A stretch of DNA of 64,000 nt from an uncultured Bacilli bacterium (GCA_947629135.1 CANRCN010000001.1:411-64410), one strand, 5' to 3'; positions 37,475 to 54,362 are shown, counted from the first letter of the stretch. Made by a program: numbers and translations. Notes: a model not told the origin generated them from the sequence alone.

Positions 37475-37521
37475 GAAGGAAAATTAGGCAGTAAAATTTG
37501 CTGTTTTGAAAGGTGTTATTT

Positions 37522-38600
37522 ATGAATAAAAAGTTAACTAATTGTAAACACGGGGGGGGGGTTATTCCACAGAAAAGTTCACTTCTAAAAAATATAAAAA
37601 TTATTGCTTTAAAATTTTAATATCTGGTATTTTTGCTTTTTTGATATTAAATGTTATTTTTAGTTTTTATTTTAATCCTCCAACTTCTGATAAGGAATAT
37701 GAAAAATCTTCTTTTTTAGTAACTCCCTTTAAATATGAACCAATGGAAAGGTTTACATATGCTCTTGAAGGACATGGTCATGGAAGAGTTAATAATGATG
37801 GATATATAAATGTAGAGGATTATGATTCTAATAAAGAAGTTAATATATTAATGGTAGGGTCATCACAGTTTGAAGCTTTTCAAGTTGATATTAAAAATTC
37901 TGTTACCTATAGATTAAATGAACTGTTGAAAAATAAGTTTGTTTATAATATAGGAGTATCAGGTAATGCATTTCCAGAAAGTATAACTAATATAGCCCCT
38001 GCTATTATTAAATATAAACCTACTGATTACATAATTTTAGAAATGTCAGATGTTAAATATTCAGATCAAGAACTTAGCAAAGTTCTCGAAGAAGAAGATA
38101 ATAAAAAAGATTCTGAAAGTTCTTCAGGTTCAAAATCAGTTAAAAATAACAATGTTATTAGAAAATTTTATAGAAATAGTTCATTTTTAAGATTGTTATG
38201 GAGAAAATTAGAAGAGTTAACCGATAATCGAGAGGCAAATTTACCTGAAGCAAAAGAAGAATTTAATGAAAAACTTACAGGAGAAGTTTTAAATAAAATA
38301 CGTACTATAGTTGAAAATAAAGTTAAAGTAATAATTGTATACCATCCTTCTGTTTCTTTAGAATCTGATGGTAATTTGATACTTTTAAATAATGAAAATG
38401 TAGAAAAATTTTCAAAGTTATGTACAGAAAATGGAATATATTTTCTTGATATGAGTGATAGATTTAGTGCAGAATATAAAAAAAATAATATTTTACCATA
38501 TGGATTTAGTAATACATCAGTAGGAAAAGGACATTTAAATAAATACGGACATGAAATGATAGCTGAAGAATTATATAAATTAATCAAGGAGGAAAAGTAG
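37522..38600 (+). pseudogene. DltD/AlgX-like SGNH-fold membrane protein (MBOAT partner) with a poly-G tract between the predicted start codon and the TM anchor; out of frame in this sequence (phase-OFF)
   Basis: ATG 37522 reads MNKKLTNCKHGGG into G10 and stops at 37620; the long ORF (37548 onward, track 37641..38600) is in the +2 frame and encodes the K-rich/TM anchor, 'MVGSSQ' and C-terminal 'GKGHLNKYGHEM' blocks; G11 or G8 would fuse them. Confidence 0.5.
37552..37561. repeat. poly-G homopolymer (G10)
   Basis: direct read; exceptional in ~25% GC DNA. Confidence 0.95.
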
Positions 38601-38601
38601 T

Positions 38602-39993
38602 ATGTCGTTTGCATCAATAGATTTTTTAATATTTTTTATAGTTGTAATATTGGGAACATTAATTATTCAAAAATTTTTCTCTAAAAGAGTGAAAGAAGTA
38701 TTCTTACTTATTGCAAGTTACTTTTTTTATGGATATTGGGATTGGAGATTTTGTTTCCTATTATTATTTGTAACCTTATCTTCGTATTTTACAGCAAAAT
38801 ATAAAGATAAAAAAGGAATATATATAATAGGAATAGTTATACCATTAATTGTACTAGGATTCTTTAAATATTTTAATTTCTTTTTGGAATCAGTATCAAG
38901 TATAATAGGTCATGATTTAGGAATATTAAATATAATTTTACCAGTTGGAATATCATTTTATACATTTCAAGCTTTAAGTTATGTAATTGATGTAAAAAGA
39001 GAAAAGATAGAAGTTGAAGATGACTTTATAAGATTAGCTTTATATTTAAGTTTCTTTCCACAACTTGTTGCGGGACCAATTGTAAGGGCAGCTGATTTCT
39101 TACCTCAATTAAAAGAAGAAAGAAAAGTAAGTTCAGAAAATTTTAAATATGGTATTCAGCTAATGGCATTTGGATTATTCAAGAAGATTGTAATAGCTGA
39201 TCATTTATCAGTTTTTGTAGATGATGTATTTAAAGTACCAGTAGCATTCCATTGGGCAACGATAGTTCTAGCCGTAATTGCTTATTCAATTCAAATATAT
39301 TTTGATTTTTCAGGATATTCTGATATAGCAATTGGATGTGCTAAATGTTTAGGATATGATTTTAATTCTAACTTTAATTTACCATATATTTCTCAAAATG
39401 TAACAGAATTTTGGAGAAGGTGGCATATAAGTCTATCAACATGGTTAAAAGAATATTTATATATTCCTCTAGGAGGAAATAGAAAAGGTAAAGTTAGACA
39501 ATATATCAATTTATTTATAACTATGTTACTTGGTGGATTATGGCATGGAGCAAGTTGGACATTTGTATTTTGGGGTGGTTTAAATGGATTAGCTTTGTGT
39601 ATAGATAAAATGATACCTAAGAAAAAAGAAAAGAATTTATTTGATAAGGTTATTGGTGTAATATTAACTTATACATTTATATGTTTTACATGGATATTCT
39701 TCAGGGCAGATAACTTTACAAATGCATGGGATATAATAAAAGGAATATTTACTTTACAAAAAGGGATAAGTCAACCTTTTGTATGGGCTTTTGTTGCAAT
39801 TATATTATTAGTTATATTTACAATAGGAGCAATTATAAAATCTCATAAGAATAAAGATAAATATGTAGATGGGTATTATCCAATAGTTAATTTAAATACT
39901 GTATTTGGATTAACAATATTCTTTGTTGTAATAGGATTAATTTTTTGTTTAGCTTTTACAGGCGAACAACCATTTGTATATTTTCAATTTTAA
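38602..39993 (+). CDS. MBOAT-family membrane O-acyltransferase (second copy)
   Basis: 'WRRWHISLSTWLKEYLYIPLGGN' MBOAT His motif; start 1 nt after the DltD-like stop. Confidence 0.85.
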   Translation: MSFASIDFLIFFIVVILGTLIIQKFFSKRVKEVFLLIASYFFYGYWDWRFCFLLLFVTLSSYFTAKYKDKKGIYIIGIVIPLIVLGFFKYFNFFLESVSSIIGHDLGILNIILPVGISFYTFQALSYVIDVKREKIEVEDDFIRLALYLSFFPQLVAGPIVRAADFLPQLKEERKVSSENFKYGIQLMAFGLFKKIVIADHLSVFVDDVFKVPVAFHWATIVLAVIAYSIQIYFDFSGYSDIAIGCAKCLGYDFNSNFNLPYISQNVTEFWRRWHISLSTWLKEYLYIPLGGNRKGKVRQYINLFITMLLGGLWHGASWTFVFWGGLNGLALCIDKMIPKKKEKNLFDKVIGVILTYTFICFTWIFFRADNFTNAWDIIKGIFTLQKGISQPFVWAFVAIILLVIFTIGAIIKSHKNKDKYVDGYYPIVNLNTVFGLTIFFVVIGLIFCLAFTGEQPFVYFQF

Positions 39994-40082
39994 ATATATG
40001 AAAAATATTTTAAATTATTATTAGAATTTAATTAGAAAAAATATAAATGAAATTTATTAAAAAATAGAAAGGTATTTAAAAT

Positions 40083-41099
40083 ATGAAAAAAAAGTTAACA
40101 ATTAGTCAATCTAGGGGGGGGCATAGTAAAAAAGAGTATAAAGGTATTGATATAACAAAATTTATTATGGCAATTCTAGTAATTGCTTGTCATGCAAATT
40201 TATATACCAATTATGATGGAACAATAGGAACAATCTATCTTTTGGTACTTAGTTGTGTTGTTCCATATTTCTTTATAACTAATGGTTTCTTTATGTATAA
40301 AGATGAAGAAACCTTTGAAAATAAACTTTGGGATAATCTAAAAAAAATTATTAAATTATATATAATTTGGAATATAATTTATTTACCTATTAGTATTTAT
40401 GATTATGCTGTAAATGGGTATTCTGTTATAAAAGCAATAATTCTTTATATTCGAGATTTTCTGTTTATAGGTGATCACTTTTTTTCTTGGCCACTTTGGT
40501 ATTTACTAGGATTTATATATGCCTTGATAGCATTAATTATATTAAAAAAATTAAAATTAAATGATAAAAAAATATTTATAATTACGATGTTAACCTATAT
40601 ATTTGCAAATGTAATGGAATATTTAACATCTATTGGTTCTAATAATATTGTTGTAAAATTATTTAGTTATGTCTTTGGTGATGGAAGAGTATTTACTGGA
40701 ATATTTTTAGTTACACTTGGAATACTTATAAAAAAATACAATGATAAAATTAAGATATCTAAAAAAATATTATTATTGCTAATTATAGTGTGCTTTGCAA
40801 TATCAGTTATAATTCCAAATAAGATAAGCGAAGTTGGATTATATATATTTCTATTTTTATTAGTCAAAGAACTTAATAATATTAAATTTAATACAATTAA
40901 CTTTAGAAGGTGTAGTACAATATTTTATTTTGTACACATGATTAATTTATTTATATATATGTTAATTGTTGGGATAGATAATACTTATGGTGTTTATGGG
41001 TTTCTAATAACAATAGTTGCTTGTATGGTAGAATCTATTATTATAATATTTATTCAAAATAAGTGGAATCCAAAAATTTTAAAGGAATTGTTTAATTAA
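40083..41099 (+). CDS. acyltransferase-3 (OatA/WecH-like) family membrane O-acyltransferase with in-frame poly-G (G8) at codons 11-13
   Basis: 'KGIDITKFIMAILVIACHA' acyl_transf_3 N-terminal motif, ~10 TM; G8 at 40114-40121 encodes Arg-Gly-Gly in frame (phase-ON). Confidence 0.6.
   Translation: MKKKLTISQSRGGHSKKEYKGIDITKFIMAILVIACHANLYTNYDGTIGTIYLLVLSCVVPYFFITNGFFMYKDEETFENKLWDNLKKIIKLYIIWNIIYLPISIYDYAVNGYSVIKAIILYIRDFLFIGDHFFSWPLWYLLGFIYALIALIILKKLKLNDKKIFIITMLTYIFANVMEYLTSIGSNNIVVKLFSYVFGDGRVFTGIFLVTLGILIKKYNDKIKISKKILLLLIIVCFAISVIIPNKISEVGLYIFLFLLVKELNNIKFNTINFRRCSTIFYFVHMINLFIYMLIVGIDNTYGVYGFLITIVACMVESIIIIFIQNKWNPKILKELFN
40114..40121. repeat. poly-G homopolymer (G8) within coding sequence
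   Basis: direct read. Confidence 0.95.
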
Positions 41100-41118
41100 G
41101 TTTTGTGTATAAGAAGGA

Positions 41119-42300
41119 GTGATAGAAATGATATATATATATGAAGCAAAAAGAAGTCCAATAGGGAAGTTTAAAAAAGGTTTTATAAATACTGATTGCA
41201 GTATGCTTGGAATGCAAGTTGCTAAAAGTATTATTGAAAATACGAAAATTGATGTAAACAAAATTGATAAAGTTATATTAGGAAATGTTTTATCGGCTGG
41301 TTTAGGACAAAATATTGCAAGACAAATATTAATAAATAGTGGAATACCTGATGATAAAACAGCTTATTCTATTAATATGGTTTGTGGAAGTGGAATGAAA
41401 GCTGTTCATGATGCTTTTAATGATATAAAATTAGGAAATGCTCATTGCATTTTAGCAGGTGGAGTTGAAAATATGAGTATGGCTCCATTATTAAAAGATA
41501 AGTACGATGATAATAAAGAGTTAAAGGATAGTATGTTATATGATGCTTTAACGGATGTATTTTCAAATGAGCATATGGGGATAACGGCTGAGAATGTTGC
41601 AGAAAAATATAATGTAACTAGAGAAGATCAAGATAAATTTGCATATGATTCACAACATAAAGTACAAACGGCAATTGAAAATAAAAAGTTTGATGATGAG
41701 ATAGTTCCAATAAAGACTTTTGAAGGAGAAGTAATAAGTTTAGATGAATTTCCAAGATTTAATACTGAAATGGAAAAACTATCAGCTTTAAAACCAGCTT
41801 TTAAAGAAAATGGAACAGTAACTGCTGGAAATGCTTCTGGAATTAATGATGGCTGTGCTTTGTTATTAATTGGAGATGAAACAATTAGTTTAAAACCTAA
41901 AGCTGAAATTATAGATTTTGCTGAAGCTGGATGTGATCCTAATTATATGGGAATGGGACCATTATATGCAATATCTAAATTATTAGAAAAAAATAATTTA
42001 AATATTAATGATATTGATTTATTTGAAATAAACGAAGCCTTTGCTTCTCAAAGTATAGCAGTTATAAGAGAATTATCTAAAAAATACAATATTAATTTAG
42101 AAGAATTTAACTCTAAAATTAATGTCAATGGTGGAGCAATTGCTTTAGGACACCCAGTTGGTGCATCAGGTGCAAGAATTATAACTACTTTAGTTCATGA
42201 AATGAAAAGAAGAAATTCAAAATATGGTGTAGCTTCACTTTGTATAGGTGGTGGTATGGGAATAGCTGTATTATTAAAAAATATGTGTGAGGAGGATTAA
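41119..42300 (+). CDS. acetyl-CoA C-acetyltransferase (thiolase II, PhaA/ThlA-like)
   Basis: Thiolase signatures: N-terminal 'EAKRSPIGKF', catalytic Cys 'NMVCGSGMKAV', C-terminal 'NVNGGAIALGHPVGASGARI' and 'SLCIGGGMG'. Confidence 0.85.
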   Translation: MIEMIYIYEAKRSPIGKFKKGFINTDCSMLGMQVAKSIIENTKIDVNKIDKVILGNVLSAGLGQNIARQILINSGIPDDKTAYSINMVCGSGMKAVHDAFNDIKLGNAHCILAGGVENMSMAPLLKDKYDDNKELKDSMLYDALTDVFSNEHMGITAENVAEKYNVTREDQDKFAYDSQHKVQTAIENKKFDDEIVPIKTFEGEVISLDEFPRFNTEMEKLSALKPAFKENGTVTAGNASGINDGCALLLIGDETISLKPKAEIIDFAEAGCDPNYMGMGPLYAISKLLEKNNLNINDIDLFEINEAFASQSIAVIRELSKKYNINLEEFNSKINVNGGAIALGHPVGASGARIITTLVHEMKRRNSKYGVASLCIGGGMGIAVLLKNMCEED

Positions 42301-42301
42301 T

Positions 42302-43015
42302 ATGTTAGAAGGAAAAATTGCAATAGTAACTGGAGCATCTCGTGGTATCGGATTAGAAATAGCAAAGTTGTTTACAAAAGAGGGAGCAAAAGTTATTGGT
42401 ACATATAATCATAATAAAACAGATATAGATGGTGTAGATTTTTATAAATTAGATGTTTCTAACAGAGAAGAAGTTAAAACATTTGTAGATACTATTATTA
42501 ACAAGTATAATAAAATAGATATTCTTGTTAATAATGCTGGAATAACAGCTGATGCATTAACTAAAAAAATGTCTGATGAAATGTTTGATAAGGTAATAAA
42601 TACTAATCTTACAGGAACCTATAATATAACTAAACTAATTGGTCCAATTATGCAAGATAATCATAGTGGTAGTATAATTAATATTACATCAATAGTTGGT
42701 ATATATGGAAATATTGGACAAGTAAATTATGCAGCTTCAAAAAGCGGTATTATAGGAATGACCCATACTTGGGCAAAAGAATTTGCTATGAAAGATGGAA
42801 ATGTTAGAGTTAATGCAATAGCACCAGGATATACAATGACAGAGATGCTTAAAACAGTTCCAGAAGAATTATTAGACAAGTTTAAAAGTATGACTTTATT
42901 GAAAAGATTAGCTGAACCTGAAGATATAGCTAATGCAGCATTATTTTTAGCAAGTGACATGGCTAGTTATATAACAGATGAAATATTAAATGTTAATGGT
43001 GGCATGAAATTATAA
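42302..43015 (+). CDS. SDR-family 3-oxoacyl reductase (FabG/PhaB-like acetoacetyl-CoA reductase)
   Basis: 'TGASRGIG' cofactor motif, 'NAG' and 'YAASK' catalytic motif; GAGGAGG RBS 6 nt before ATG 42302. Confidence 0.85.
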   Translation: MLEGKIAIVTGASRGIGLEIAKLFTKEGAKVIGTYNHNKTDIDGVDFYKLDVSNREEVKTFVDTIINKYNKIDILVNNAGITADALTKKMSDEMFDKVINTNLTGTYNITKLIGPIMQDNHSGSIINITSIVGIYGNIGQVNYAASKSGIIGMTHTWAKEFAMKDGNVRVNAIAPGYTMTEMLKTVPEELLDKFKSMTLLKRLAEPEDIANAALFLASDMASYITDEILNVNGGMKL

Positions 43016-43051
43016 AAATATATACTTGAAAAAAAGGAAAGTGATTATATT

Positions 43052-44094
43052 GTGAAAAAGAATATAGAAAAAGTTAACAATAAGTCACCTCGGGGGGGGG
43101 GGCTTATAAAAAATATATAATAATATTTAAATTAATATTATCTTGCTTTATTGCATTTATAATATTAAATTTGTTTTGTATTTTTTATTATAATATACCA
43201 GTACATTCTACTTCTAAAGATGGTGCAACTGATTACGTTTGGGAACCAAACAAGTTTTATTCACGTTGGACTGAAGGCTTTGGATATGGAAGAACGAACA
43301 ATGAAGGTTATTATGATTATAAAAAATATAAAAAGAGCGATAATGTTGATATATTAGTTATGGGATCTTCACATATGGAAGCAGCTCAAATACAACAAAA
43401 TAAATCTACATCAGGATTGCTTGATAATATGTTAAAAGATTATTATGTTTATAATATAGGAATATCGGGTCATACATTTATAACCTGTGTTAGTAATCTT
43501 GAAGCTGCTATTACTAAATATAATCCAAATAAATATATTATTATTGAAACTAACACAGTTACTTTTTCAGATAGTGATTTGAACAATGCATTGAACAATT
43601 CAGTTGAAGAAATTCCTTCTTATGATGGAGGTGTAATTGGTATACTACAGCAAAATCAACTTTTAAGATTATTATATCATCAAGCAGAGTCTTTTCTTAA
43701 TTTAGAAAATGAAGGAGATATAATTCCAAATAGTCAAACTAACTTTGATACTAATTTTAACTTATTAAATCAACTTTTTATAAAAATGCAAGAAAAAGCA
43801 GAAAAAAATAATATTAAAATAATAATAATGTATCATCCAAGTACAACTTTGAATAAAGATGGAAGTTTAAATTTGTCAAGTGAAAATGAAAATATAGAAG
43901 AATTTTCGAAATTATGTAAAGAAAATGGAATATATTTTCTTGATATGAGTGATAGATTTAGAGAAGAATATGAAAAGAATTATATTCTACCATATGGATT
44001 TAGTAATACATCAGTAGGCACAGGTCATTTAAATAAATATGGACATGAAATGATTGCTGAAGAATTATATAAATTAATCAAGGAGGAAAAGTAG
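43052..44094 (+). pseudogene. second DltD/AlgX-like SGNH-fold paralogue, again with a poly-G tract between the predicted start (GTG 43052) and the TM anchor, out of frame in this sequence
   Basis: GTG 43052 reads VKKNIEKVNNKSPRGGG into G11 and stops at 43120; the long ORF (open from 43084, track 43171..44094) is in the +2 frame; the C-terminal 60 aa are near-identical to the 37641 paralogue; G12 or G9 would fuse them. Confidence 0.45.
43092..43102. repeat. poly-G homopolymer (G11)
   Basis: direct read. Confidence 0.95.
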
Positions 44095-44275
44095 AGTATC
44101 GCTTTTATCAATAGACTTTTTAATATTTTTTATAGTTATAATACTAGGAACATTTATTATTTAAATATAGAAGTATTCTTACTTATTGCAAGTTACTTTT
44201 TTTTAATATTGGATTTAATATTTTGTTTTCTATTTCATATTTTACAGCAAAATATATGTATATTTCAAATTTTAA
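44095..44275 (+). pseudogene. degenerate 5' remnant of an MBOAT gene (partial duplicate of 38602-38800)
   Basis: Nucleotide-level similarity to the start of MBOAT 38602 ('atcaatagactttttaatattttttatagtt', 'gaagtattcttacttattgcaagttacttttttt', 'tattttacagcaaaatata') with internal deletions and stops. Confidence 0.55.
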
Positions 44276-44534
44276 TTTGTCTTGTATAAAATAAAAGTTA
44301 TTTTAAGTTAATATTATGATGATTTAGAATGATGTTAAAGGAATCTTAACTTATATTTCTTAGAAATTATTAGACGTTAATAACTATAAGGATTTATTAA
44401 AAAAACTTCCAAATGATAATAAATATGATTACAGAAGTATATATTTTTTAGGTACTAATTATTGCTTTATAATAGAAAAAAATATAAGTCTTTTATATGT
44501 TCGTTATAACTGAAAAATTATGTATGTTTTTCAG

Positions 44535-44563
44535 TTTACTTTTTTTATTAGACGTGTTAGAAT
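44535..44563 (+). promoter_or_regulatory. promoter, copy 1 of a duplicated promoter
   Basis: TTTACT -17 nt- TGtTAGAAT extended -10; same 'acgtgttagaatatt' core as at 50704-50725. Confidence 0.5.
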
Positions 44564-44588
44564 ATTGTTTGGAAGGTAAGTTTGGAGT

Positions 44589-46625
44589 ATGAAAACTATA
44601 TTAAAAAAAATTGATATCAAATTAGTTATTGCAGTTATTATACATTTTTTAATAACGTTTATTACAGATAGAAATATATTTATTTTTAAAGAAATAAATA
44701 TTACTAATTATATTTTGTGTAAAGTAGTATTGTTAGGATTATTAATATTATTATGGAAGTTTATATTTAAATTAATTCATAAAGATAAGAATGCTGTTGA
44801 TTATTTTAAAAAGTTTTTAATATACATAATTCCAATTTCTATTTTATTAGTTTTGTGTTGGCCAGGTAATTGGTTTGGACCAGATGTTGCTAATTTTTAT
44901 CAATTTGCAATTCGTGGCAATTTTGTATATTATCTTAATTACTTATCATCAGTTTTTTATATTATAGGTTTAATGTTCTTTCCAGTTCCAAGTGGTCCTA
45001 TTATTCTTTTAGCTATTTTATTTGGAATTGTATTTTCTTATTTAACTAAAAATCTATATGATATTTATAAAAGTAAACTTGTTTATTTAATGTTAATTCC
45101 ATTCTTTATGTTAAATACTTTATTTTATACTTTTTATGCTAATAGACCAATTATTTTTGGAATTATTTATTTATTATTAATTAGTATTATTTTACTTGAT
45201 AAAATTAAAAATAATAAATTAACTAATAAAAAAATTTTAGCTTTAATTATTTTAACAGGAGTCGCAGCCTATTGGAGAACTGAGAGTATTTATTTAATTC
45301 TTGCTATTCCTTTATTTATTTTTATAGTCTATAAATTAAAAGTAAATTTTAAAAACATTGCTAAGATCTTTGGTTTTACTATTTTAAGTTTTCTAGCTAT
45401 ATCATTACCTCAAAAAATATATGAATATAATTTTCATGATTATCCATTATCATCACGTAATGCAGCTATATATATTTTACCTTTATCTTATATGTTAACT
45501 AAAGATTTAAAGGGGAAAAATTTAGAAAGTAATTTAGCTAAAATTGATAAAGTTATAGGAATAGAAGAAATGAAAAAATATCCATCCTATAATGATACTT
45601 ATTGTATTTGGGAAAGTAATTGTAAAAAATTAGATTATACTAAAGAAGAATATAAAGAGTTTCAAAAAGCTTATTTTGATGTAATAATTAATAATTTTCC
45701 TGAATATTTAAAAACAAGAATGTTAACATTTGTAGGTGCAAGTGGTCTTTATAATAATACTTTTACAACTAAGAATTTATATAATGAAAATATAGAGACT
45801 TTATTTGAAAGAAAAGATACTAAACCATTTATTAATTATAAAATAAGGAAAGTTGTTTATTCAATTTTAGAAGGAAGAATTTCTGATAAAGGAAGATCTA
45901 TTCTTCCATATAATCTAACTAATAATTTAATAATACCTTTGTTATTTATTGGAATATTATTTATATATTCAATTGTAAAAAAGAAGTTATTTTACTTTTT
46001 GTTATCTGGGATGTTGATTGGTCATACTACGATAGTTTTCTTTACAGCTCCTGCTAACTATGCAATGTATTATTTTAATATTTATTTAACTGGATTAGTA
46101 GTTGGAGTTATGTTTATAATTGATTATATATATTATAAAAAGAATAAAAAATGTTATTTATTAGATATAAAGAAAAAAAATAAAAAGAAAGTAAAAAGGG
46201 AGGAATCAAAGATAAAAAAATTAATAGTTCAAGCTTTTAAGTTCTTTGGAATATCTGGAATAGGATGGTTAATTGATTTTACAACTTATACAGTTATGAC
46301 AAGTTTACTAAAAATAGATATCATGATTGCTAATATTATAAGTTCATTTTTAGGAATTACTTTTGTCTATTTAGTTTCAACGAGAAAATTATTTCAGAAT
46401 AATAGTAAATATAATTTAAAAGTAAAATATATTGCTTATATTTTATATCAAGTTGTTTTTGTATTATTAGTTTCTTATATAATGACATTTTTAAAAGAAT
46501 ACTTATTAGGATTTGATGTTAAATTAATAAGTGATTATGTCAATATAATAACTAAAATTGTAGTAACTCCATTTACAATGGTAATAAATTTTATAGTTAT
46601 GAAAAATTTAATAGAGAGGATTTAA
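44589..46625 (+). CDS. large polytopic GT-C-like membrane protein (GtrC/YfhO-like by context) fused to a C-terminal GtrA-family domain
   Basis: ~14 TM helices; first 520 aa paralogous to 50747..52330 (identical blocks 'WPGNWFGPDVANFY', 'PVPSGPIILLAILFGIVFSYLTKNLYDIYKSKLVYLMLIPFFMLNTLFYTFYANRPII'); last ~140 aa have 4 TM with GtrA-like pattern; a GT2 gene follows immediately. Confidence 0.5.
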   Translation: MKTILKKIDIKLVIAVIIHFLITFITDRNIFIFKEINITNYILCKVVLLGLLILLWKFIFKLIHKDKNAVDYFKKFLIYIIPISILLVLCWPGNWFGPDVANFYQFAIRGNFVYYLNYLSSVFYIIGLMFFPVPSGPIILLAILFGIVFSYLTKNLYDIYKSKLVYLMLIPFFMLNTLFYTFYANRPIIFGIIYLLLISIILLDKIKNNKLTNKKILALIILTGVAAYWRTESIYLILAIPLFIFIVYKLKVNFKNIAKIFGFTILSFLAISLPQKIYEYNFHDYPLSSRNAAIYILPLSYMLTKDLKGKNLESNLAKIDKVIGIEEMKKYPSYNDTYCIWESNCKKLDYTKEEYKEFQKAYFDVIINNFPEYLKTRMLTFVGASGLYNNTFTTKNLYNENIETLFERKDTKPFINYKIRKVVYSILEGRISDKGRSILPYNLTNNLIIPLLFIGILFIYSIVKKKLFYFLLSGMLIGHTTIVFFTAPANYAMYYFNIYLTGLVVGVMFIIDYIYYKKNKKCYLLDIKKKNKKKVKREESKIKKLIVQAFKFFGISGIGWLIDFTTYTVMTSLLKIDIMIANIISSFLGITFVYLVSTRKLFQNNSKYNLKVKYIAYILYQVVFVLLVSYIMTFLKEYLLGFDVKLISDYVNIITKIVVTPFTMVINFIVMKNLIERI

Positions 46626-46629
46626 TTGT

Positions 46630-47439
46630 ATGGAAAAGATAATGGTTTTTATACCAATGTATAATTGTGAAAAACAAATAGTTAGAGTTTTAAAGCAATT
46701 TGATAAAGAGGTTTTAAAATATATTGAAGAAATTGTAATTATTAATAATAGAAGTACTGATAATGGAGAAGAAGCAGTTATTAATTTTAGTAAAGAAAAT
46801 AAAATAGATAAGAAACTAACTTTACTTAGAAATGATGAAAATTATAATTTAGGTGGATCTCACAAAGTAGCTTTTGATTATGCAATTAAGAATAACTATG
46901 ATTATTTAATTGTTTTACATGGTGATGATCAAGGAAGTATTCATGATTTGTTACCATATCTTAAAAATAAAGAATATGAAAATTATGATTCTTTACTTGG
47001 TTCAAGATTTTTAAAAGAATCTAAACTAGAAGGATATTCTAAGTTTAGAACTTTTGGAAACATTGTTTATAATTTTGCTTTTTCCATATTACTTGGGAAT
47101 AAAGTAAAAGATTTAGGTGCAGGATTAAATATGTATAAAGTTGAATCTTTAAAAAATAAATATTATATTAAATATCCTGATAGATTAACTTTTAATTGTT
47201 ATATGTTACTTGCTATTAAATCTTATAAACAAAATGTAAAATATTTTCCAATAACATGGAGAGAAGATGATCAAGTTTCTAATGTTAAAATGGTATCACA
47301 AGCTTTTAAAACAATAATGATACCAATTAAATATTTTTTTAGAAGAAGTAAGTATTTAGAAAGTGAGCATAGAGATAAGATAATAGAAGATTATACTGCA
47401 AGTTGTATATATAGTATTGGAGGTAAAAATGGAAAATAA
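46630..47439 (+). CDS. GT2-family glycosyltransferase, GtrB/DPM1-like without C-terminal TM helices
   Basis: 'MVFIPMYNCEKQIVRVLKQF' GT-A start, 'LHGDDQGS' DxD-type motif. Confidence 0.65.
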   Translation: MEKIMVFIPMYNCEKQIVRVLKQFDKEVLKYIEEIVIINNRSTDNGEEAVINFSKENKIDKKLTLLRNDENYNLGGSHKVAFDYAIKNNYDYLIVLHGDDQGSIHDLLPYLKNKEYENYDSLLGSRFLKESKLEGYSKFRTFGNIVYNFAFSILLGNKVKDLGAGLNMYKVESLKNKYYIKYPDRLTFNCYMLLAIKSYKQNVKYFPITWREDDQVSNVKMVSQAFKTIMIPIKYFFRRSKYLESEHRDKIIEDYTASCIYSIGGKNGK

Positions 47440-48175
47440 GGTACATTTAATCATGCCTATGGGAGGAGCAGGCTCAAGATTCTTTAAAAATGGATATGTT
47501 ATGCCTAAACCATTAATTGAAATAAATGGTAAACCATTTTTATATTGGTCAACTATGTCAATTAAAAAATATATAGATTTAGAAGATATAACTTTTGTTA
47601 TTCTTCAAGAACATATTGATAATTTTGAAATTGATAAAGTTATTTTAAAATATTTTCCTGATGCAAAATTTGTAGTATTGAAGGAAATGTTTAAAGAAGG
47701 ACCTGTATTAACTTGTAAGGCAGGACTCGAGAATATTAATGATGATCTTCCAATTATTTTTAATGATTGTGATCATTATTTTAAGAGTAGTAGTTTTAAT
47801 GATTTTTGCAATAGTGAAGATAAAAGTTTGGTTGATGGAGCTTTAGTAACTTTTGAAGCTGATGATCCTAAGTTTAGCTATGTTGAATTAGACGAAAATG
47901 GAAATGCTAAACGAACTGTTGAAAAAGAAGTTATTAGTAATGATGCGATTTGTGGAGCATATTATGTTAAAAATAAAAAAATATTCTTAGATAGTGTTTC
48001 AGAGTACATGGATAATTGTAATTACAAAGAATTTTTTGTAAGTGGTATTTATAACATTATGATAAAAAATGGTTTAACTGTAAAAAACTTTAGAGTAGAT
48101 TTTCATATTCCATTTGGAACTCCTGAAGAATATGAACTTGCTAAAGAAAAAGTAGAATTTGAGGAAATAAAATGA
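47429..48175 (+). CDS. sugar-phosphate/alcohol-phosphate nucleotidyltransferase (NTP_transferase fold, LicC/RmlA-like)
   Basis: 'LIMPMGGAGSRF...MPKPLIEINGKPFL' nucleotidyltransferase G-rich loop; GGAGG RBS 5 nt before ATG 47429. Confidence 0.6.
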   Translation: MENKVHLIMPMGGAGSRFFKNGYVMPKPLIEINGKPFLYWSTMSIKKYIDLEDITFVILQEHIDNFEIDKVILKYFPDAKFVVLKEMFKEGPVLTCKAGLENINDDLPIIFNDCDHYFKSSSFNDFCNSEDKSLVDGALVTFEADDPKFSYVELDENGNAKRTVEKEVISNDAICGAYYVKNKKIFLDSVSEYMDNCNYKEFFVSGIYNIMIKNGLTVKNFRVDFHIPFGTPEEYELAKEKVEFEEIK

Positions 48176-50061
48176 TTTACTTCACATTAATTCTTGCAAT
48201 TATCTTCATGGTAATTGGTCATTATTTTAAAGTTTATAGGTTAAAACAATTTATAGAAATTTATGAAAAGCCAAATACTCCTAGATTACTTCAAGCTTTA
48301 TCTATAAGTTATGTTATCAATTTCTTTGTTCCGTTTAGATTAGGAGACATCTTTAGAGCTTGGTGGGCTGGAAGAAAGATGAAAAATGGAGTATCATTTT
48401 CTTTGACAACGGTTATTGTTGATAGAATTTTAGATGTTATAGTAGTTGCTTTAATCTTTTTTAGTTTTTATCTATTAGGCTTTAAAGAAAAAGTAATTGA
48501 AAGTTCTATTTATTTTTATATAATAGGTGGTTCAGTTTTATTAATATTATTATTTTTAGGAATGAAATTTAGTAAATATATAAAAATATCAATTATGAAA
48601 TTTGCTAGAATATTTAATACTAATATTGAACTTAGGATATTAAAATTTACTTGGTATATTATCACAGCCTTTAAAGACTTAATATCAAAACTTAAAAAAA
48701 GCGAATTGTTAATTAATACAATTGTTATGTGGTTCTTTTATTTAGGTTCATATTCTTTATTTGCTTTAACAATGCGATTTTCAGGAAGTAATACAAGTTT
48801 AGTTGATATATTTACTTTATTATTTTCAAAGAATAGTTTTGATCTTTCAACTGGTGCTTTTTCAATTAGTAATTATTATATGGTAATTTATTTATTAGTG
48901 CCATTAGTTATTTTGTTAATTTTATCTTTATTTAAGACTAAAGAAAAAGGTAAAAATTATGTAAAAAATAAATATTTAGAGTTATTACCTCAATTAAATT
49001 CTTCAGATAAATTAGTTTTTTTAGAAGGATATTTCAGTGCTCGTTCTAGAGAATATTTTAATAATTATGTTATGTTAAATCGAGATATTTCTATTATTCA
49101 AGATTTTTCAGCAGGTAGTAATGCTACAACTATGCTTTGTACTTATGATAATAAAATGTTTTTTAGAAAATATAGTTTTGGTAAAGATTCTTCTAAATTA
49201 TATGAACAAATTAAATGGTTAAAAGAACATCAAAAAGTTATACCTTTAACTAAGGTTTTAAATGTTAAAAGAGGCAATGAATATTGTTCTTATGATATGC
49301 CATATTTTAATAATGCTATTAGTTGCTTTAACTATGTTCATTCTACACCTATTAATAAATCATGGCCAGTTCTTGAAAAGGCTCTTAATACTATAGGTGA
49401 AAATTTACATACTAAAAATTTAGTAAATGCTGATATTAAAAAAATAGATGAATATATAGAAAGTAAAGTTATAAATAATTTAAAAAAAATTGAAAATGGT
49501 AATTATATTAAACCTTTACTTAAATATAATTATTTAATTATAAATGGTAAAAAGTATCATAATTTAAATTATTTTATGAAATATTTAACAAAAGAATACT
49601 TAGAAGAGTTGTTTAAAAATGATATGTATTCTGATATTCATGGGGATTTTACAATTGAAAATATTATTTGTTTTAATGATAAAGATGATTTTTATATAAT
49701 AGATCCAAATACTGGTAATGTTCATGATTCTCCAAATCTTGATTATGCTAAGTTATTACAATCTTTACATGGTGGATATGAATTTTTAATGAATACAAAA
49801 AGTGTTTCAGTTTCTGAAAATAATATTAATTATTTATTTACTAAATCAGCTGTATATGATGAATTGTATAATAAATATCATAAGTATTTATGTGATAAGT
49901 TTGATAGAATAAAAGTAAAAAGTATTTATTTTCATGAAATTATTCATTGGTTAAGGTTATTACCTTATAAAATAGAAAAAAATGGTGAAAGACAAGTATT
50001 ATTTTATGCAGGACTTATTATAGTATTAAATGATGTAATAGAAATGTTTGGTGATGATTAA
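48172..50061 (+). CDS. fusion protein: N-terminal flippase-like (LPG-synthase-TM/UPF0104) membrane domain + C-terminal choline/aminoglycoside-kinase-fold (APH/ChoK) kinase
   Basis: N-terminus 'RLGDIFRAWWAGRK' with ~8 TM; C-terminus 'DIHGDFTIENIICFNDKDDFYIIDPN' matches the H-G-D-x-x-x-x-N ... D-x-N catalytic/Mg loops of ChoK/APH kinases. Confidence 0.55.
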   Translation: MIYFTLILAIIFMVIGHYFKVYRLKQFIEIYEKPNTPRLLQALSISYVINFFVPFRLGDIFRAWWAGRKMKNGVSFSLTTVIVDRILDVIVVALIFFSFYLLGFKEKVIESSIYFYIIGGSVLLILLFLGMKFSKYIKISIMKFARIFNTNIELRILKFTWYIITAFKDLISKLKKSELLINTIVMWFFYLGSYSLFALTMRFSGSNTSLVDIFTLLFSKNSFDLSTGAFSISNYYMVIYLLVPLVILLILSLFKTKEKGKNYVKNKYLELLPQLNSSDKLVFLEGYFSARSREYFNNYVMLNRDISIIQDFSAGSNATTMLCTYDNKMFFRKYSFGKDSSKLYEQIKWLKEHQKVIPLTKVLNVKRGNEYCSYDMPYFNNAISCFNYVHSTPINKSWPVLEKALNTIGENLHTKNLVNADIKKIDEYIESKVINNLKKIENGNYIKPLLKYNYLIINGKKYHNLNYFMKYLTKEYLEELFKNDMYSDIHGDFTIENIICFNDKDDFYIIDPNTGNVHDSPNLDYAKLLQSLHGGYEFLMNTKSVSVSENNINYLFTKSAVYDELYNKYHKYLCDKFDRIKVKSIYFHEIIHWLRLLPYKIEKNGERQVLFYAGLIIVLNDVIEMFGDD

Positions 50062-50615
50062 TGAAAAAATTAGCAATGATTGATTTAGATGGAACTTTGT
50101 TTGATACTAACGAAGTAAATTATTATGCTTATAAAGAATCTTTAAATGAAAAAGGATTTGATCTTGAGTATGAACATTATAAAAATGAATGTAATGGTAG
50201 ATATTATAAAGTATTTTTACCTGATATAGTTAATAATGATGAAGAGGTTATGGAATATGTTCATAAAAGAAAAAAAGAATTATATGAAAAATATTTGGAT
50301 AAGGCTATTGTAAATGAACATTTATTTAATATTTTAGAAAGTATAAAAGATAAATACTATTTAGCTTTAGTTACAACAGCTTCTAAAAAGAATACTTATG
50401 ATATTTTAAAATATTTTAAAAAAGTTGAATTATTTGATTTAATTTTAACTCATGATGATATTGAAAAGCCAAAGCCAGATCCTGAAGGATTCAAAAAAGC
50501 TTTAGATTATTTTAAGATTGATGCTAAAGATGCAATCGTTTTTGAAGATTCTAATGTTGGAATAGAAGCAGCTAAGAAAGTTGGAGCTACAATTTTTAAA
50601 ATAGAAAATTTTTAG
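50061..50615 (+). CDS. HAD-IA hydrolase (beta-phosphoglucomutase/phosphatase-like)
   Basis: 'MIDLDGTLFDT' HAD motif I and 'FEDSNVGIEAAKKVG' motif IV. Confidence 0.7.
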   Translation: MKKLAMIDLDGTLFDTNEVNYYAYKESLNEKGFDLEYEHYKNECNGRYYKVFLPDIVNNDEEVMEYVHKRKKELYEKYLDKAIVNEHLFNILESIKDKYYLALVTTASKKNTYDILKYFKKVELFDLILTHDDIEKPKPDPEGFKKALDYFKIDAKDAIVFEDSNVGIEAAKKVGATIFKIENF

Positions 50616-50694
50616 AAATAGATATTAGAAAGATATAAAAATTAACAATGTTCTTTTTTAGAATTTGTTAATTTTTTTATTTAAAAAAGATTAG

Positions 50695-50723
50695 TTTACA
50701 ATTTCTTTTATACGTGTTAGAAT
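50695..50723 (+). promoter_or_regulatory. promoter, copy 2 of the duplicated promoter
   Basis: TTTACA -17 nt- TGtTAGAAT; identical core to the copy at 44558. Confidence 0.5.
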
Positions 50724-50746
50724 ATTACTAGAAGGGTAAGGTAGAA

Positions 50747-52330
50747 ATGAAAAAAAAATTAAAAAAAATTAATTTTAAATTGATAATTATTGTTTTAATA
50801 CATTTTGTAATAACATTTTTTACAGATAAAAATATATTTGTTTTTTCTGATATAAATATTATTAATTATATTTTTTGTAAAATTATATTTTTATTAGTTT
50901 TATATTTATTTTGGAAATTTATCTTTAAATTAATAGACAAAGATAAAGTAATGATTAGTTATTTTAAAAAGTTTTTAATATATATGATACCTATTAGTAT
51001 ATTATTAATTTTATGTTGGCCAGGTAATTGGTTTGGGCCAGATGTTGCTAATTTTTATGAATATGCAATTCATGGTAATTTCTTATATTATCTTAATTAT
51101 TTATCATCAGTTTTTTATATGATAGGTTTTATGTTTTTTCCAGTTCCAAGTGGACCTATTATTCTTTTAGCTATTTTATTTGGAATTGTATTTTCTTATT
51201 TAACTAAAAATCTATATGATATTTATAAAAGTAAACTTGTTTATTTAATGTTAATTCCATTCTTTATGTTAAATACCTTATTTTATACTTTTTATGCTAA
51301 TAGACCAATTATATATGGAGTTTTTTACTTGCTATTAATTAGTATTATTTTACTTGATAAAATTAGAAATAACAAATTAACAAATAAAAAATTTCTTGTA
51401 TTAATGATTTTAACAGGAATATCTTCCTATTTTAGAAGTGAAAGTATTTATTTAATTCTTGCTATTCCTTTATTTATTTTTATAGTTTATAAATTAAAAG
51501 TAAATGTTAAAAACATTGCTAAGATATTTGGATTTACAGTTTTAGCTTTTTTAATAGTTGCAATGCCTCAAAAGATATATGAATATAAAAATGTTGAAGA
51601 TCAATATACTCGTAATTTACCAATATATATTACACCTTTATCTTATATGTTAACTAAGGATTTAAAAGGTAAAAATTTAGAAAGTGATTTAGCTAAAATC
51701 GATAAAGTTATTGGAATAGAGGAGATGAAAGAATATCCATCTTATATAGATGCTTTTTGTGTTTGGAATAATGATTGTTTAAAGACAGGCTATACTAAGG
51801 AAGAATATAAGGAGTTTCAAAAAGCTTATTTTGATGTAATAAAAAATAATATACCAGAATTTATAATGACTAAAACTTTAACTTTTGCTAATGCAAGTGG
51901 GGTTTATGGAAGTACTTTTACAACTAAAAATTTATATAATGAAGATAATCAAATGTTATATAAGAGAAAAGATACTAAACCTTTTATAAATTATAAAGTA
52001 AGAAGATTTACATATTCACTTCTTGAAGGAAGATTAACTGATAAATGGCAACCTAATATTTTATATAGAATTTTTAATAATTTATTTGTATCATTCTTAA
52101 TCATTGGAATAATATTTATATATTCAATTATTAAAAAGAAATTATTTTACTTTTTATTATGTGGAATGTTAATTGGACATGCTGTTATAGTTTTCTTTAC
52201 AGCACCAGCTAGTTATTTTATGTATTATTTTAATGTTTATTTATGTGGGTTAGTTCTTGGAGTAATATTTGTAATAGATTATATATATTATAAAAAACAT
52301 AAAAAAAGTTATGTTTTAAAGAACAAGTAG
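50747..52330 (+). CDS. GT-C-like polytopic membrane protein, paralogue of 44589 without the GtrA fusion
   Basis: 527 aa, long identical blocks with the 44589 product. Confidence 0.5.
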   Translation: MKKKLKKINFKLIIIVLIHFVITFFTDKNIFVFSDINIINYIFCKIIFLLVLYLFWKFIFKLIDKDKVMISYFKKFLIYMIPISILLILCWPGNWFGPDVANFYEYAIHGNFLYYLNYLSSVFYMIGFMFFPVPSGPIILLAILFGIVFSYLTKNLYDIYKSKLVYLMLIPFFMLNTLFYTFYANRPIIYGVFYLLLISIILLDKIRNNKLTNKKFLVLMILTGISSYFRSESIYLILAIPLFIFIVYKLKVNVKNIAKIFGFTVLAFLIVAMPQKIYEYKNVEDQYTRNLPIYITPLSYMLTKDLKGKNLESDLAKIDKVIGIEEMKEYPSYIDAFCVWNNDCLKTGYTKEEYKEFQKAYFDVIKNNIPEFIMTKTLTFANASGVYGSTFTTKNLYNEDNQMLYKRKDTKPFINYKVRRFTYSLLEGRLTDKWQPNILYRIFNNLFVSFLIIGIIFIYSIIKKKLFYFLLCGMLIGHAVIVFFTAPASYFMYYFNVYLCGLVLGVIFVIDYIYYKKHKKSYVLKNK

Positions 52331-52357
52331 TTATAATTGAAGTTAAGGTGAGTTTGT

Positions 52358-53338
52358 ATGAAAGAAGTAAAAAAAGAATATAAAGGTATAGACATAATGA
52401 AATTTTTATTAGCTATAGTTATTATAATTTATCATACTCGTTTATATACTGGTAATAATCATACTTTAAAAACGATTTATGATCTTTTGTTAAGTTCTGC
52501 TGTTCCTTTATTTTTTATAACAAGTGGATTTTTTGTATATGATAAATATAAACAAGAAGAAAGGATAACTAAGTTATTAAAGAAAAATATTAAATTATAT
52601 CTCATTTGGAATCTTATTTATCTTCCAATTGCTATATATGGAGATGTTATTAATAATTATTCAGTTGGAAAATCAATTTTGTTATATATACGTGAATTTT
52701 TATTCTTAGGAGAACATTATTTTAGTTGTCAAATTTGGTATTTATTGTCATTTATATATTCTTTAATAATATTATTGGTGTTAAAAAAATTAAAATTAAA
52801 TGATATAAAAATATTTATAATAACTATTTTAATATATGTTTTTGCAACGGTGATGGTATATTTAACTTCTAATAATTTTGATTATAAATTTGTTAAATTA
52901 TTTAGTAGTATTTTTTCAACAGGAAAAGTATTTTTAGGACCAGCTATAGTTACACTTGGAATGTTTATTAATAAGTATAAAGATAAGATAAAAATATCTA
53001 AAATTGTATTATTATTAATGATTGTTTTATGTACTGTTGTATCAATTATATTTCCAAATAAAATAAGTAGAATAATGCTTTATATATTTGTATTCTTGTT
53101 AGTTATGAATTTGAATAATATTAAATTTAATACTGTTAATTTTAGAAAGTGTAGCATTATATTTTATTTTATTCATATGATTAATTTGTTTATTTATATG
53201 TTAATAGTTGGTATAAATAATACATATGGAATATATAGTTTTATATTTACACTTATTACTTGCATAATAGAATCAGTTATTATAATAGCAATTCAAAATA
53301 AATGGAATCCTAAAGTGTTAAAAGAAATATTTAGTTGA
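52358..53338 (+). CDS. acyltransferase-3 family membrane O-acyltransferase, paralogue of 40083 lacking the poly-G N-terminal extension
   Basis: 'KGIDIMKFLLAIVIIIYHT' motif; near-identical C-terminus ('NIKFNTVNFRKCSIIFYFIHMINLFIYMLIVGINNTYG'). Confidence 0.6.
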   Translation: MKEVKKEYKGIDIMKFLLAIVIIIYHTRLYTGNNHTLKTIYDLLLSSAVPLFFITSGFFVYDKYKQEERITKLLKKNIKLYLIWNLIYLPIAIYGDVINNYSVGKSILLYIREFLFLGEHYFSCQIWYLLSFIYSLIILLVLKKLKLNDIKIFIITILIYVFATVMVYLTSNNFDYKFVKLFSSIFSTGKVFLGPAIVTLGMFINKYKDKIKISKIVLLLMIVLCTVVSIIFPNKISRIMLYIFVFLLVMNLNNIKFNTVNFRKCSIIFYFIHMINLFIYMLIVGINNTYGIYSFIFTLITCIIESVIIIAIQNKWNPKVLKEIFS

Positions 53339-53359
53339 TACGTTAAGTATTAACTTTTT

Positions 53360-53866
53360 TTACCAATATTTACTGATATAATCTTTAATTAAATTATAAC
53401 GTTCAAATACTGATAATACTATTTTTTTATCACTTGTAATTGTTAAAAATTCTTTTTTAGTAACAAATTTAATATCTGAAACTTCTTGAGTTTGTAATTT
53501 TAATTTAGTAAGATCTACTTTGATATTGCTAATATAAATATCAACAAATTGGTGTTTATAAAGTGTAGTAGTTATTAGTTTAAAATCTTTATTAGTTAAA
53601 TTTAAACCAATTTCTTCTTGTATTTCTCGAATTAGAGTTTCTTGACTTTCTTCATTTGCTAATGAACATCCACCTGGAACTTCCCATTCTAAAGGATGAG
53701 ATTTATTTATACTTCTCTTAGTAATTAATAACTTATGATTATTAAATATCCAAATTTCAACTCCAACGTTATATTCTTCTTGAAGTAAAAGAGTATTTCT
53801 TTCTTTAGTATAGTTTAATTTTTCACGATTACTATTATAAACATCAAATAATTCCATTAAAATCAC
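53360..53866 (-). CDS. Nudix hydrolase
   Basis: Nudix box 'PGGCSLANEESQETLIREIQEEIGL' (G-x5-E-x7-R-E-x2-E-E-x-G). Confidence 0.7.
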   Translation of the reverse strand: MILMELFDVYNSNREKLNYTKERNTLLLQEEYNVGVEIWIFNNHKLLITKRSINKSHPLEWEVPGGCSLANEESQETLIREIQEEIGLNLTNKDFKLITTTLYKHQFVDIYISNIKVDLTKLKLQTQEVSDIKFVTKKEFLTITSDKKIVLSVFERYNLIKDYISKYW

Positions 53867-54361: not shown

Positions 54362-54362
54362 G

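Follow-up and report, generated by a model that had tools for sequence, protein, structure and literature searches.

A candidate repeat-driven contingency locus for polysaccharide decoration in an uncultured low-GC Firmicute

Do simple sequence repeats at the distal end of a surface-polysaccharide locus switch the decoration of that polysaccharide on and off? The question is raised by a 64,000-nucleotide stretch of DNA from an uncultured Bacilli bacterium (GCA_947629135.1 CANRCN010000001.1:411-64410; the window, for short), in which an earlier reading of the sequence, here called the original prediction, took positions 37500-53340 to be a phase-variable, cassette-shuffled island of capsule-decoration genes. 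The window has a GC content of 23.7%, with a strong excess of G over C on the plus strand, and from 11622 to 53338 its open reading frames (ORFs) lie exclusively on that strand. The products encoded there include homologues of Wzz, CpsD and CpsB, a CapD-like dehydratase, an aminotransferase, an initiating sugar transferase, several GT4 enzymes, a pyruvyl transferase, a Wzx flippase, ATP-grasp enzymes and UDP-glucose dehydrogenase, and a convergent NUDIX gene marks the end. This is a Wzy-type surface-polysaccharide locus of ~42 kb, and the interval 37500-53340 is its distal, variable third, which holds decoration genes only, much as had been predicted for the end of a capsule locus of more than 40 kb. 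The closest loci come from rabbit-gut ("Lapin") metagenome-assembled genomes (MAGs) of ~23% GC that are labeled uncultured Bacilli or Clostridia. Judged by these matches the host is an uncultured Firmicute of ~23% GC with relatives among the rabbit-gut MAGs, for which the earlier description "Clostridium-like" is loose.

The answer turns on four genes that carry simple repeats and on the acyltransferase genes beside them, which are as follows.

35131-36373, plus strand: gene for an FrhB/FdhB-like iron-sulfur protein, split (Pfam, frame simulation)
35481-35514, plus strand: (AT)17 dinucleotide repeat (run scan, alignment of five lineages)
37522-38600, plus strand: first SGNH gene, for a membrane-anchored SGNH-fold acyltransferase partner; a leader ORF, G10, and a 345-codon body in another frame
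37532-37561, plus strand: leader motif AGTTAACTAATTGTAAACAC followed by G10 (repeat-family comparison, motif scan)
38602-39993, plus strand: gene for an MBOAT (DltB/PatA-like) acyl-donor channel with its own ribosome-binding site, AAGGAGG (Pfam MBOAT, 6e-36)
40083-41099, plus strand: first acyltransferase-3 (AT3) gene, with leader motif and G8; ON, 338 aa (Pfam, frame simulation)
43052-44094, plus strand: second SGNH gene, with a leader from GTG 43052, the motif, G11 and a 329-codon body (frame simulation)
44094-~44255, plus strand: remnant of the 5' part of a second, decayed MBOAT gene, which has deletions, an in-frame stop and no start codon
52358-53338, plus strand: second AT3 gene, a paralogue with neither leader nor tract and the last gene of the locus (Pfam, paralogue alignment)

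Three of the repeats are poly-G tracts at gene 5' ends, as originally predicted, and they are the sole runs of seven or more G or C residues in the 64 kb: G10 (37552-37561), G8 (40114-40121) and G11 (43092-43102). Their number is far above that in shuffled sequence, overlapping matches to G7 amounting to 11 against 0.23 expected. The tracts sit 10-13 codons past a ribosome-binding site and start codon (ATG 37522, ATG 40083 and GTG 43052) and directly precede the first membrane helix of each of the three acyltransferases, and no alternative start codon was found between tract and helix in any of the three genes. With the tract placed after the start codon and ahead of the first membrane helix, production of the full protein hinges on a slip of a single unit. 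The fourth repeat, (AT)17, lies just outside the interval of the original prediction. It is internal, ~117 codons into the FrhB-like gene, and divides that gene into an ORF of 131 aa with Fer4 and FrhB_FdhB_N domains and an ORF of 299 aa with the FrhB_FdhB_C domain (Pfam).

ON and OFF states were assigned by simulating the reading frames over a range of tract lengths from the consensus assembly. The first SGNH gene is ON at G8 or G11, when it yields a protein of 358-359 aa, and otherwise gives 21-33 aa; it is OFF at the assembled G10. The first AT3 gene is also ON at G8 or G11, and is ON in the assembly (G8). The second SGNH gene is ON at G9 or G12 and OFF at the assembled G11, and the FrhB-like gene is ON at (AT)15 or (AT)18 (412-414 aa) and OFF at the assembled (AT)17. 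For the four repeats taken together, lengths that are not ON lead to products of 13-134 aa. In the order first SGNH gene, first AT3 gene, second SGNH gene and FrhB-like gene, the assembly is therefore in the state OFF/ON/OFF/OFF, with three of the four genes out of frame; each OFF gene is exactly one repeat unit away from an ON length, and a change of one unit toggles all four. The bodies of the two OFF SGNH genes nevertheless stay open after the tract, for 345 and 329 codons, in DNA of a composition at which we estimate that ~10% of random codons would be stops.

We consider it reasonably likely that the interval is a repeat-driven contingency locus for polysaccharide decoration, in which simple repeats gate the two SGNH genes, the first AT3 gene and the FrhB-like gene that precedes them. 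Slippage by one unit at replication would decide whether the three acyltransferase genes give a full-length product and, in the FrhB-like gene, whether its two ORFs are joined into a single protein, and a population could hold up to 16 decoration states. Recombination would add further diversity through the order of modules, the divergent body of the SGNH gene and the exchange of a patch between glycosyltransferase genes (see below). The selective benefit would most likely be escape from phage or from host immunity.

Comparison of the interval among related genomes, a check named beforehand in the original prediction, revealed differing module content, tract lengths and ON/OFF states in the relatives (whose loci are given L numbers). 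The leader tract of the SGNH gene is G10 and ON in L006, G8 and OFF in L019, and G6 and OFF in L010. The L013 orthologue of the first AT3 gene, which is 75-84% identical to it over two aligned fragments, has G9 and is OFF, whereas the window has G8 and is ON. A gene for a hexapeptide acetyltransferase carries a tract 25 codons in, G10 in L006 and G7 in L010. At the linker of the FrhB-like gene, the five lineages aligned have (AT)17, (AT)~8, G10, G10 and G6, three of the genes being split and two intact; on this alignment the linker is a repeat hot spot whose repeat type varies. SGNH-MBOAT genes from MAGs of Lachnospiraceae, Dorea and Acetatifactor (37-55% GC) likewise have G8-G11 tracts within them or next to them (L059 at 2457, 4541 and 11329; L035 at 1981 and 11201; L028 at 10800 and 12802; L053 at 4979), and L028 and L053 have an internal SGNH site in common, at which one of the two is ON and the other OFF. 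Some orthologues have no tract or an interrupted one (L011, ATAGGTGAGAC; the interrupted leaders of P0002 and P0003), as one would expect if tracts come and go over time. The recurrence of the same sites with different lengths and different states is, by comparative sequence analysis, the signature of contingency genes, and it speaks against chance and against assembly error.

The modules themselves are also arranged differently in close relatives. In L011 the order is nucleotidyltransferase, fusion protein, HAD hydrolase, SGNH and MBOAT, followed by GT-C/GtrA and GT2 (all described below), an order that differs from that of the window. Identity between the two is ~90% for the nucleotidyltransferase, the fusion protein, the HAD hydrolase, the MBOAT protein and GT2, and 71-76% for SGNH and GT-C. 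Other relatives hold different subsets of the modules. Cassette shuffling among relatives, the second element of the original prediction, is thus supported by gene order and content.

Several results weigh against switching. We saw no polymorphism of tract length within a strain: L071, an independent low-coverage assembly of the window strain, has the same G11, and the L006-type strain has an identical G10 in five loci from different samples (in the FrhB-like and SGNH genes, and in three of these loci in the hexapeptide gene as well). The FrhB-like and hexapeptide tracts of that strain were sampled without bias; the look-up anchored on the MBOAT gene led to five contigs, of which the one that was read had the same neighboring genes and four were flagged as similar places. 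As a test of polymorphism this is a small sample of consensus assemblies, perhaps from a single animal cohort, and it counts as weak negative evidence. Assemblies give the majority length only, and homopolymer lengths from short reads can be off by one. True decay is seen among the neighbors, namely the MBOAT remnant, an AT3 gene with a second break in L013 and an MBOAT gene in three pieces in L010, so that some of the OFF state could reflect the loss of genes and not switching. The two AT3 paralogues are old and evenly divergent, with no recent exchange. That switching occurs at all is something we infer, as is the chemistry of the attached groups, which we take from family membership. Our confidence in the contingency reading is no higher mainly because the length test gave no polymorphism. 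Of the term "phase-variable," then, the tracts, the frames and the comparative states speak in favor, and the lengths within strains do not. The original prediction had named invariant lengths with intact frames as a finding that would count against it; we found lengths that are the same within strains and different among relatives, and frames that are broken in three of four genes.

The alternative that survives best is gene decay. The distal end would on this account be a graveyard of accessory genes, the homopolymers mutational hot spots and the OFF genes permanent pseudogenes, and it would accommodate the three OFF genes among four, the remnant and the partner-less second SGNH gene, the breaks in L013 and L010, and the identical tract lengths in repeat assemblies of the same strains. 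But tracts of G8-G11 cannot arise or persist by chance at 23% GC, and these are found again at matching codon positions in a number of species-level MAGs, in ON and OFF states alike. Nor does decay explain why the OFF bodies lack secondary stops over 329-345 codons, or why every OFF gene stands precisely one unit from ON. We regard decay as an unlikely explanation overall. The fragmented MBOAT gene of L010 (10909-12220) and the AT3 gene of L013 (13412-14413), which has its second break besides the leader tract, could have truly decayed or could be products of misassembly in the Logan and SPAdes contigs.

A different alternative arises from the sequence that precedes the tracts. The window has three exact copies of an 11-mer, AAAAAGTTAAC (0.36 expected), all of them 24-25 nt before a G tract. 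In degenerate form, as AGTTAA-N5-WGTMAA, this leader precedes all three tracts of the window and also the tracts of L019 (SGNH) and L013 (AT3), and five of its seven occurrences in the window and loci L001-L019 abut a tract. The motif belongs to genes of unrelated families, where it is read in two frames (KLT... or KVN...), so that its conservation is at the level of DNA. A pattern scan of metagenome contigs turned up eight further copies, seven of them in contigs of 25-35% GC, and at least six of these seven have a start codon 20-50 nt upstream of the tract. No copy was found in viral contigs, and there is thus no sign of phage origin.

Some copies stand alone. In L075 (8740-8900), L077 (2112-2260) and L078 (727-870) the leader is not fused to a long gene; a mini-ORF of 18-21 aa stops 5-8 nt past a G8 tract, a strong hairpin with a U-run follows 47-95 nt downstream (hairpin z -6.5 in L075, -5.0 in L077 and -1.2 in L078), and beyond it lies the gene of a distinct, N-terminally anchored surface protein. 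In each of the three, translation would run on into the hairpin or through it if the tract gained a single G. Stand-alone leaders of the same layout were also noted in L073, L074, L076 and L080. As a hypothesis only, the arrangement suggests an attenuator that depends on tract length.

It could accordingly be argued that the leader and G tract are mainly cis-regulatory everywhere, as an operator or a translation-coupled attenuator, with tract length tuning activity and the effect on frame secondary. Conservation of the DNA over unrelated genes in two frames would fit, as would the mini-ORFs ahead of a hairpin and U-run that an extra G brings within reach of the ribosome. The three copies in the window, however, are fused to long ORFs with no terminator following, and L006 and L010 carry tracts without the motif. 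RNA folding of five fused leaders disclosed no common structure (only the leader w3 stood out, with z -3.9 and its tract paired with CCUC), and Rfam gave nothing in the window at gathering thresholds and nothing credible in six contigs with stand-alone leaders. We judge a mainly regulatory role to be improbable. For the fused leaders, an explanation through RNA structure was dropped for want of a common fold. The motif also resembles a promoter on the opposite strand (TTGACA-like, with a poor -10 match) and a direct-repeat operator of the OmpR/WalR type; both candidates were set aside, as the case for each is resemblance alone.

A broader proposal would embrace both kinds of copy. The leader, consisting of ribosome-binding site, start codon, AGTTAA-N5-WGTMAA and G8-11, would be a portable switch module of low-GC gut Firmicutes, used either as a fused frameshift gate or as a stand-alone attenuator; we put this forward tentatively and think it doubtful as a whole. 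When fused, as in the three window copies, L013 and L019, the leader would act as a frameshift gate. When it stands alone, as in L075, L077 and L078, only the G9 class would let the ribosome into the terminator hairpin, which would be opened, and transcription would continue into the downstream surface-protein gene. Conservation of the motif as DNA would then mean that the module is copied between genes or is recognized by a dedicated factor. The motif offers a searchable signature for further switches and a concrete hypothesis of a repeat-controlled attenuator, and the leader module and its apparent spread among gut Firmicutes merit follow-up.

Finally, that the tracts or their lengths are short-read homopolymer or poly-G errors in genes that are really intact and constitutive is very improbable. 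In favor of it, every assembly used is a MAG assembly from short reads, many of the tracts in SPAdes contigs measure exactly G10, and some supporting contigs have ~2x coverage. But the G11 is not an assembly error, since it was reproduced independently in L071, both flanks of the tracts are collinear with homologous proteins, homologous sites have lengths of 6, 7, 8, 9, 10 and 11 across projects and assemblers, and some tracts are in frame and appear as Gly runs in called proteins (for example, RGGG in P0057). All tracts in the SPAdes loci L001, L002, L006-L009 and L012 are exactly G10, and those in the window, L010, L013, L015 and L019 range from G6 to G11; the uniform value may be a natural modal length or a length bias of short reads.

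What, then, would a contingency locus of this kind switch? The MBOAT protein encoded at 38602-39993 matches PF03062 above cutoff (6e-36) and TIGR04091 below its curated cutoff (1.6e-47). The database holds 1349 proteins that match it at E <= 1e-100, and identity is 67-92% among the best 120 listed. Few of the matches listed carry names; those that do belong to Clostridia, Ruminococcaceae/Oscillospiraceae and Fretibacterium (Synergistota). Where the MBOAT protein stays at 67-92%, identity of the SGNH partner falls to 35-45%, which suggests, from sequence comparison, that the pair has spread horizontally together while the SGNH partner diversified. Neither SGNH protein has a significant match in Pfam, and the sequence matches in Pfam and NCBIfam are all sub-threshold. 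An AlphaFold2 model (predicted local distance difference test score, 89.9) has an N-terminal helix at residues 8-36 and an SGNH domain, and in Foldseek it matched SGNH esterases and PatB with E values of 5e-7 to 1e-4 and a probability of 1.0, TesA, an acetyl-xylan esterase and the peptidoglycan O-acetyltransferase PatB being among the matches. A GSS block and a GH(L)N block, which would contain the catalytic Ser and His, are invariant across 55 homologues. On the model, the neighbor of the MBOAT gene encodes an SGNH-fold protein with an N-terminal membrane anchor, and the SGNH part of the earlier label "SGNH/DltD-like" is upheld by fold though not by any significant Pfam match.

The two AT3 proteins match PF01757 above cutoff (5.6e-16 for the first and 1.4e-17 for the second) over profile positions 2-322 of 326, so the MBOAT gene and both AT3 genes of the original prediction are borne out by Pfam. 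An MBOAT channel together with an externally anchored SGNH transferase would carry out O-acylation outside the membrane. The second SGNH gene has no intact MBOAT partner of its own, and its product may share the remaining MBOAT protein now that its own has decayed. A third MBOAT gene (DltB-like, 1e-52) lies on the minus strand at 6149-8448, beside a gene for a 336-aa protein with a weak GDSL/SGNH match; this pair lies apart from the polysaccharide locus, is encoded on the other strand and carries no repeat.

The remaining features of the distal part of the locus are these.

36470-37474, plus strand: nitroreductase-family gene; in L006 and L010, the immediate upstream neighbor of the SGNH-MBOAT unit
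41119-42300, plus strand: acetyl-CoA acetyltransferase (thiolase) gene (Thiolase_N 1e-82, Thiolase_C 3e-50)
42287-43015, plus strand: SDR ketoacyl reductase (PhaB/FabG-like) gene (adh_short_C2 3e-61)
44533-44588, plus strand: duplicated upstream region, TTTACT-17-TAGAAT with TG extension (promoter-like consensus match)
44589-46625, plus strand: gene for a GT-C-fold glycosyltransferase fused to a C-terminal GtrA flippase-like domain (GtrA 4.8e-9)
46630-47439, plus strand: GT2 glycosyltransferase gene, candidate polyprenyl-phosphate sugar synthase (Pfam, NCBIfam)
47417-48175, plus strand: sugar-phosphate nucleotidyltransferase-like gene (Pfam/NCBIfam; matches all below curated cutoffs)
48172-50061, plus strand: gene for an LPG_synthase_TM (flippase-like) fusion protein (Pfam for the N-terminal domain; C-terminal half with HGDxxxxN)
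50061-50615, plus strand: HAD-IA hydrolase gene, beta-phosphoglucomutase family (Pfam, NCBIfam)
50693-50746, plus strand: second copy of the duplicated upstream region, TTTACA-17-TAGAAT with TG (promoter-like consensus match)
50747-52330, plus strand: gene for a GT-C-fold glycosyltransferase paralogue without GtrA domain

Pfam confirmed both the thiolase and the PhaB-like reductase that had been predicted. Genes for thiolase, reductase and AT3 are adjacent in L001 and L003, the L002 contig has reductase and AT3 only, and the L001 reductase is 86% identical to that of the window. The making of 3-hydroxybutyryl-CoA by a thiolase and a ketoacyl reductase is the established chemistry of PhaA and PhaB. 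Given that chemistry, the families and the adjacency of the three genes in relatives, thiolase, ketoreductase and AT3 could together make a 3-hydroxybutyryl group and attach it.

The predicted GT-C/GtrA/GT2 set also held up, GT2 and GtrA by Pfam and GT-C by fold. GT2, GtrA and GT-C are encoded together, and all three components of an extracytoplasmic glycosylation set are thus present. The GT2 protein has weak similarity to AglJ, ArnC and dolichyl-phosphate hexose transferases, all below curated cutoffs. GT-C belongs to a family that has no Pfam model and that numbered 761 cluster representatives in a library search; its fold is supported by structure prediction for the paralogue, which is 75% identical to the product of 44589-46625. 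The set would add a side-chain sugar outside the membrane, with a second GT-C and a second AT3 besides. Of the trio originally described as kinase, nucleotidyltransferase and HAD, the last two were confirmed. The 629-aa fusion protein gave no significant match to a kinase family; its C-terminal half had no sequence match in Pfam or the PDB, and similarity to Bud32 was marginal (E 0.008 over 30 residues).

Duplication and exchange have left their marks on these genes. The original prediction recognized two paralogous pairs (GT-C-like and AT3) and a partial duplication that left an MBOAT remnant, all of which we recovered, and it ascribed near-identical 3' ends in the paralogues to gene conversion, which proved correct in part. 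In the GT-C pair, codons 121-210 are 96-99% identical within this genome, with a third-position identity of 0.87-0.97, and third-position identity of either copy to the L011 orthologue over these codons is 0.63-0.70; outside them the second copy is nearer L011. Because third-position identity within the genome far exceeds that to L011, codons 121-210 are, on the alignments, a recent gene-conversion patch, and the near-identical stretch (45007-45126) is internal rather than at the 3' end. The SGNH pair does have a near-identical 3' end (92% over the last 210 nt, against ~55% in the body). But five other alleles of the low-GC clade show the same against the SGNH genes (third-position identity of 0.72-0.88 in the last 70 codons and ~0.5 in the body), and conversion specifically between these two copies was set aside as the reading, the block being common to the whole clade; the alleles are better read as a hypervariable SGNH body between conserved flanks. 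For the AT3 pair, which is evenly ~70% identical with a maximum of 83%, conversion of the 3' ends was rejected. Ancient paralogues had also been named as evidence that would go against the prediction, and the AT3 pair is of that sort, whereas the GT-C pair has its recent patch. As for the "duplicated promoter" of the GT-C pair, the duplication is real (44533-44608 and 50693-50768 are 71% identical, both with ACGTGTTAGAAT), and its promoter character is a consensus match only; a scan for promoters and terminators was uninformative in so AT-rich a window (176 sites against 184 expected).

Several features of the locus have counterparts in known systems. In Campylobacter jejuni, poly-G tracts lie in O-methyl phosphoramidate (MeOPN)-transferase and other capsule-modification genes, and their switching has been shown experimentally (PMC3417653, PMC8355987). 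The resemblance to that contingency system pointed out in the original prediction is apt: in both cases an AT-rich gut bacterium has several intragenic G tracts of ~8-11 nt in non-essential decoration genes of a capsule locus, with combinatorial ON/OFF states and a likely benefit in escape from phage or host immunity. The genes, however, are non-homologous, with no MeOPN transferases here; the locus is Wzy-type and not ABC-type, the host is a Firmicute, the tracts have a leader motif in common, and the system described here is known from sequence alone. The further statement that no such system was known to have been described for a Clostridium-like Gram-positive was overstated as a claim of novelty, since the (TA)n repeat of wciZ in Streptococcus pneumoniae switches capsule O-acetylation between serotypes 15B and 15C (PMC5028725). 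There, too, a Gram-positive with a Wzy-type cps locus loses or regains an O-acetyltransferase by repeat length, and the AT dinucleotide recalls (AT)17. Unlike wciZ, which has one repeat in the body of one gene, the present locus has four repeats, of which three are G tracts within 5' leaders, and the tracts gate SGNH genes of the MBOAT-partner type and an AT3 gene. Also comparable is oafA of Haemophilus influenzae, a phase-variable AT3 O-acetyltransferase (reviewed in PMC9558356) and hence another surface-glycan acyltransferase of that family under repeat-driven frameshift, although its repeat is a tetranucleotide, its target lipooligosaccharide and its host Gram-negative.

The enzymes have precedents of their own. 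MBOAT-SGNH pairs that acylate polymers include PatA/PatB, AlgI/AlgJ/AlgX and DltB/DltD (PMC12148441, PMC9487903), and as in PatA/PatB-type pairs the MBOAT gene here adjoins a gene for an N-terminally anchored, outward-facing SGNH-fold protein. It differs from those in that the SGNH partner has no significant sequence family and a hypervariable body, while the MBOAT protein is 67-92% conserved across phyla (best 120 listed). No phase-variable PatB-like partner came up in our searches. The GT2, small GtrA-family membrane domain and GT-C-fold transferase correspond to the three-component glycosylation of Gram-positives (CsbB/GtcA/YfhO) and to Gtr systems (PMC8035078, PMC5836110), except that here GT-C is without a Pfam model, GtrA is fused to it and a second GT-C copy lacks GtrA.

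For the leader, there is a parallel in the vlp, vsa and vsp lipoprotein families of Mycoplasma, which have a conserved 5' cassette that carries the repeat. Both have a conserved 5' module and a hypermutable tract common to genes whose downstream parts differ, but the Mycoplasma genes are paralogous lipoprotein genes with the tract often in the promoter, whereas here the enzyme families are unrelated and the leader is inside the coding sequence. The open-access literature that was searched contained no account of phase variation by poly-G tracts in Lachnospiraceae or gut Clostridia, and no paper on the rabbit MAG set. That repeats can drive the phase variation of glycan-modifying genes is an established principle; what differs here is the host lineage, the number of gated genes per locus, the gating of an SGNH partner, the occurrence of more than one repeat type at the same site and the common leader motif.

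Among gut commensals, reversible surface variation is known mainly from Bacteroides, by invertible promoters, and simple repeats serve it in a few pathogens. If our reading is right, uncultured low-GC Firmicutes vary the O-acylation and side-chain decoration of their polysaccharide by poly-G and (AT)n repeats, and some Lachnospiraceae may do likewise, to judge from the tracts in other MAGs. This would bear on the dynamics of phages and hosts in the gut, on immune recognition of commensals and on how "frameshifted pseudogenes" in MAGs are read; gene callers truncated these proteins, and annotation pipelines would therefore miss the system.

Three other regions of the window contain genes of note. 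Beside the end of the locus are three consecutive NUDIX hydrolase genes (53360-54839), one convergent and two co-directional. Farther downstream, 59102-62756 encodes an AIPR-family (abortive-infection-like) protein and a large serine recombinase (CcrB/XisF-like), and is possibly a mobile or defense island. At the other end of the window (444-2490), a longer protein carries a fused SipW-like signal peptidase domain, and its gene adjoins one for a DUF5305 protein, upstream of a polysaccharide deacetylase gene, and these could be a processing system for TasA-type fibers or surface proteins.

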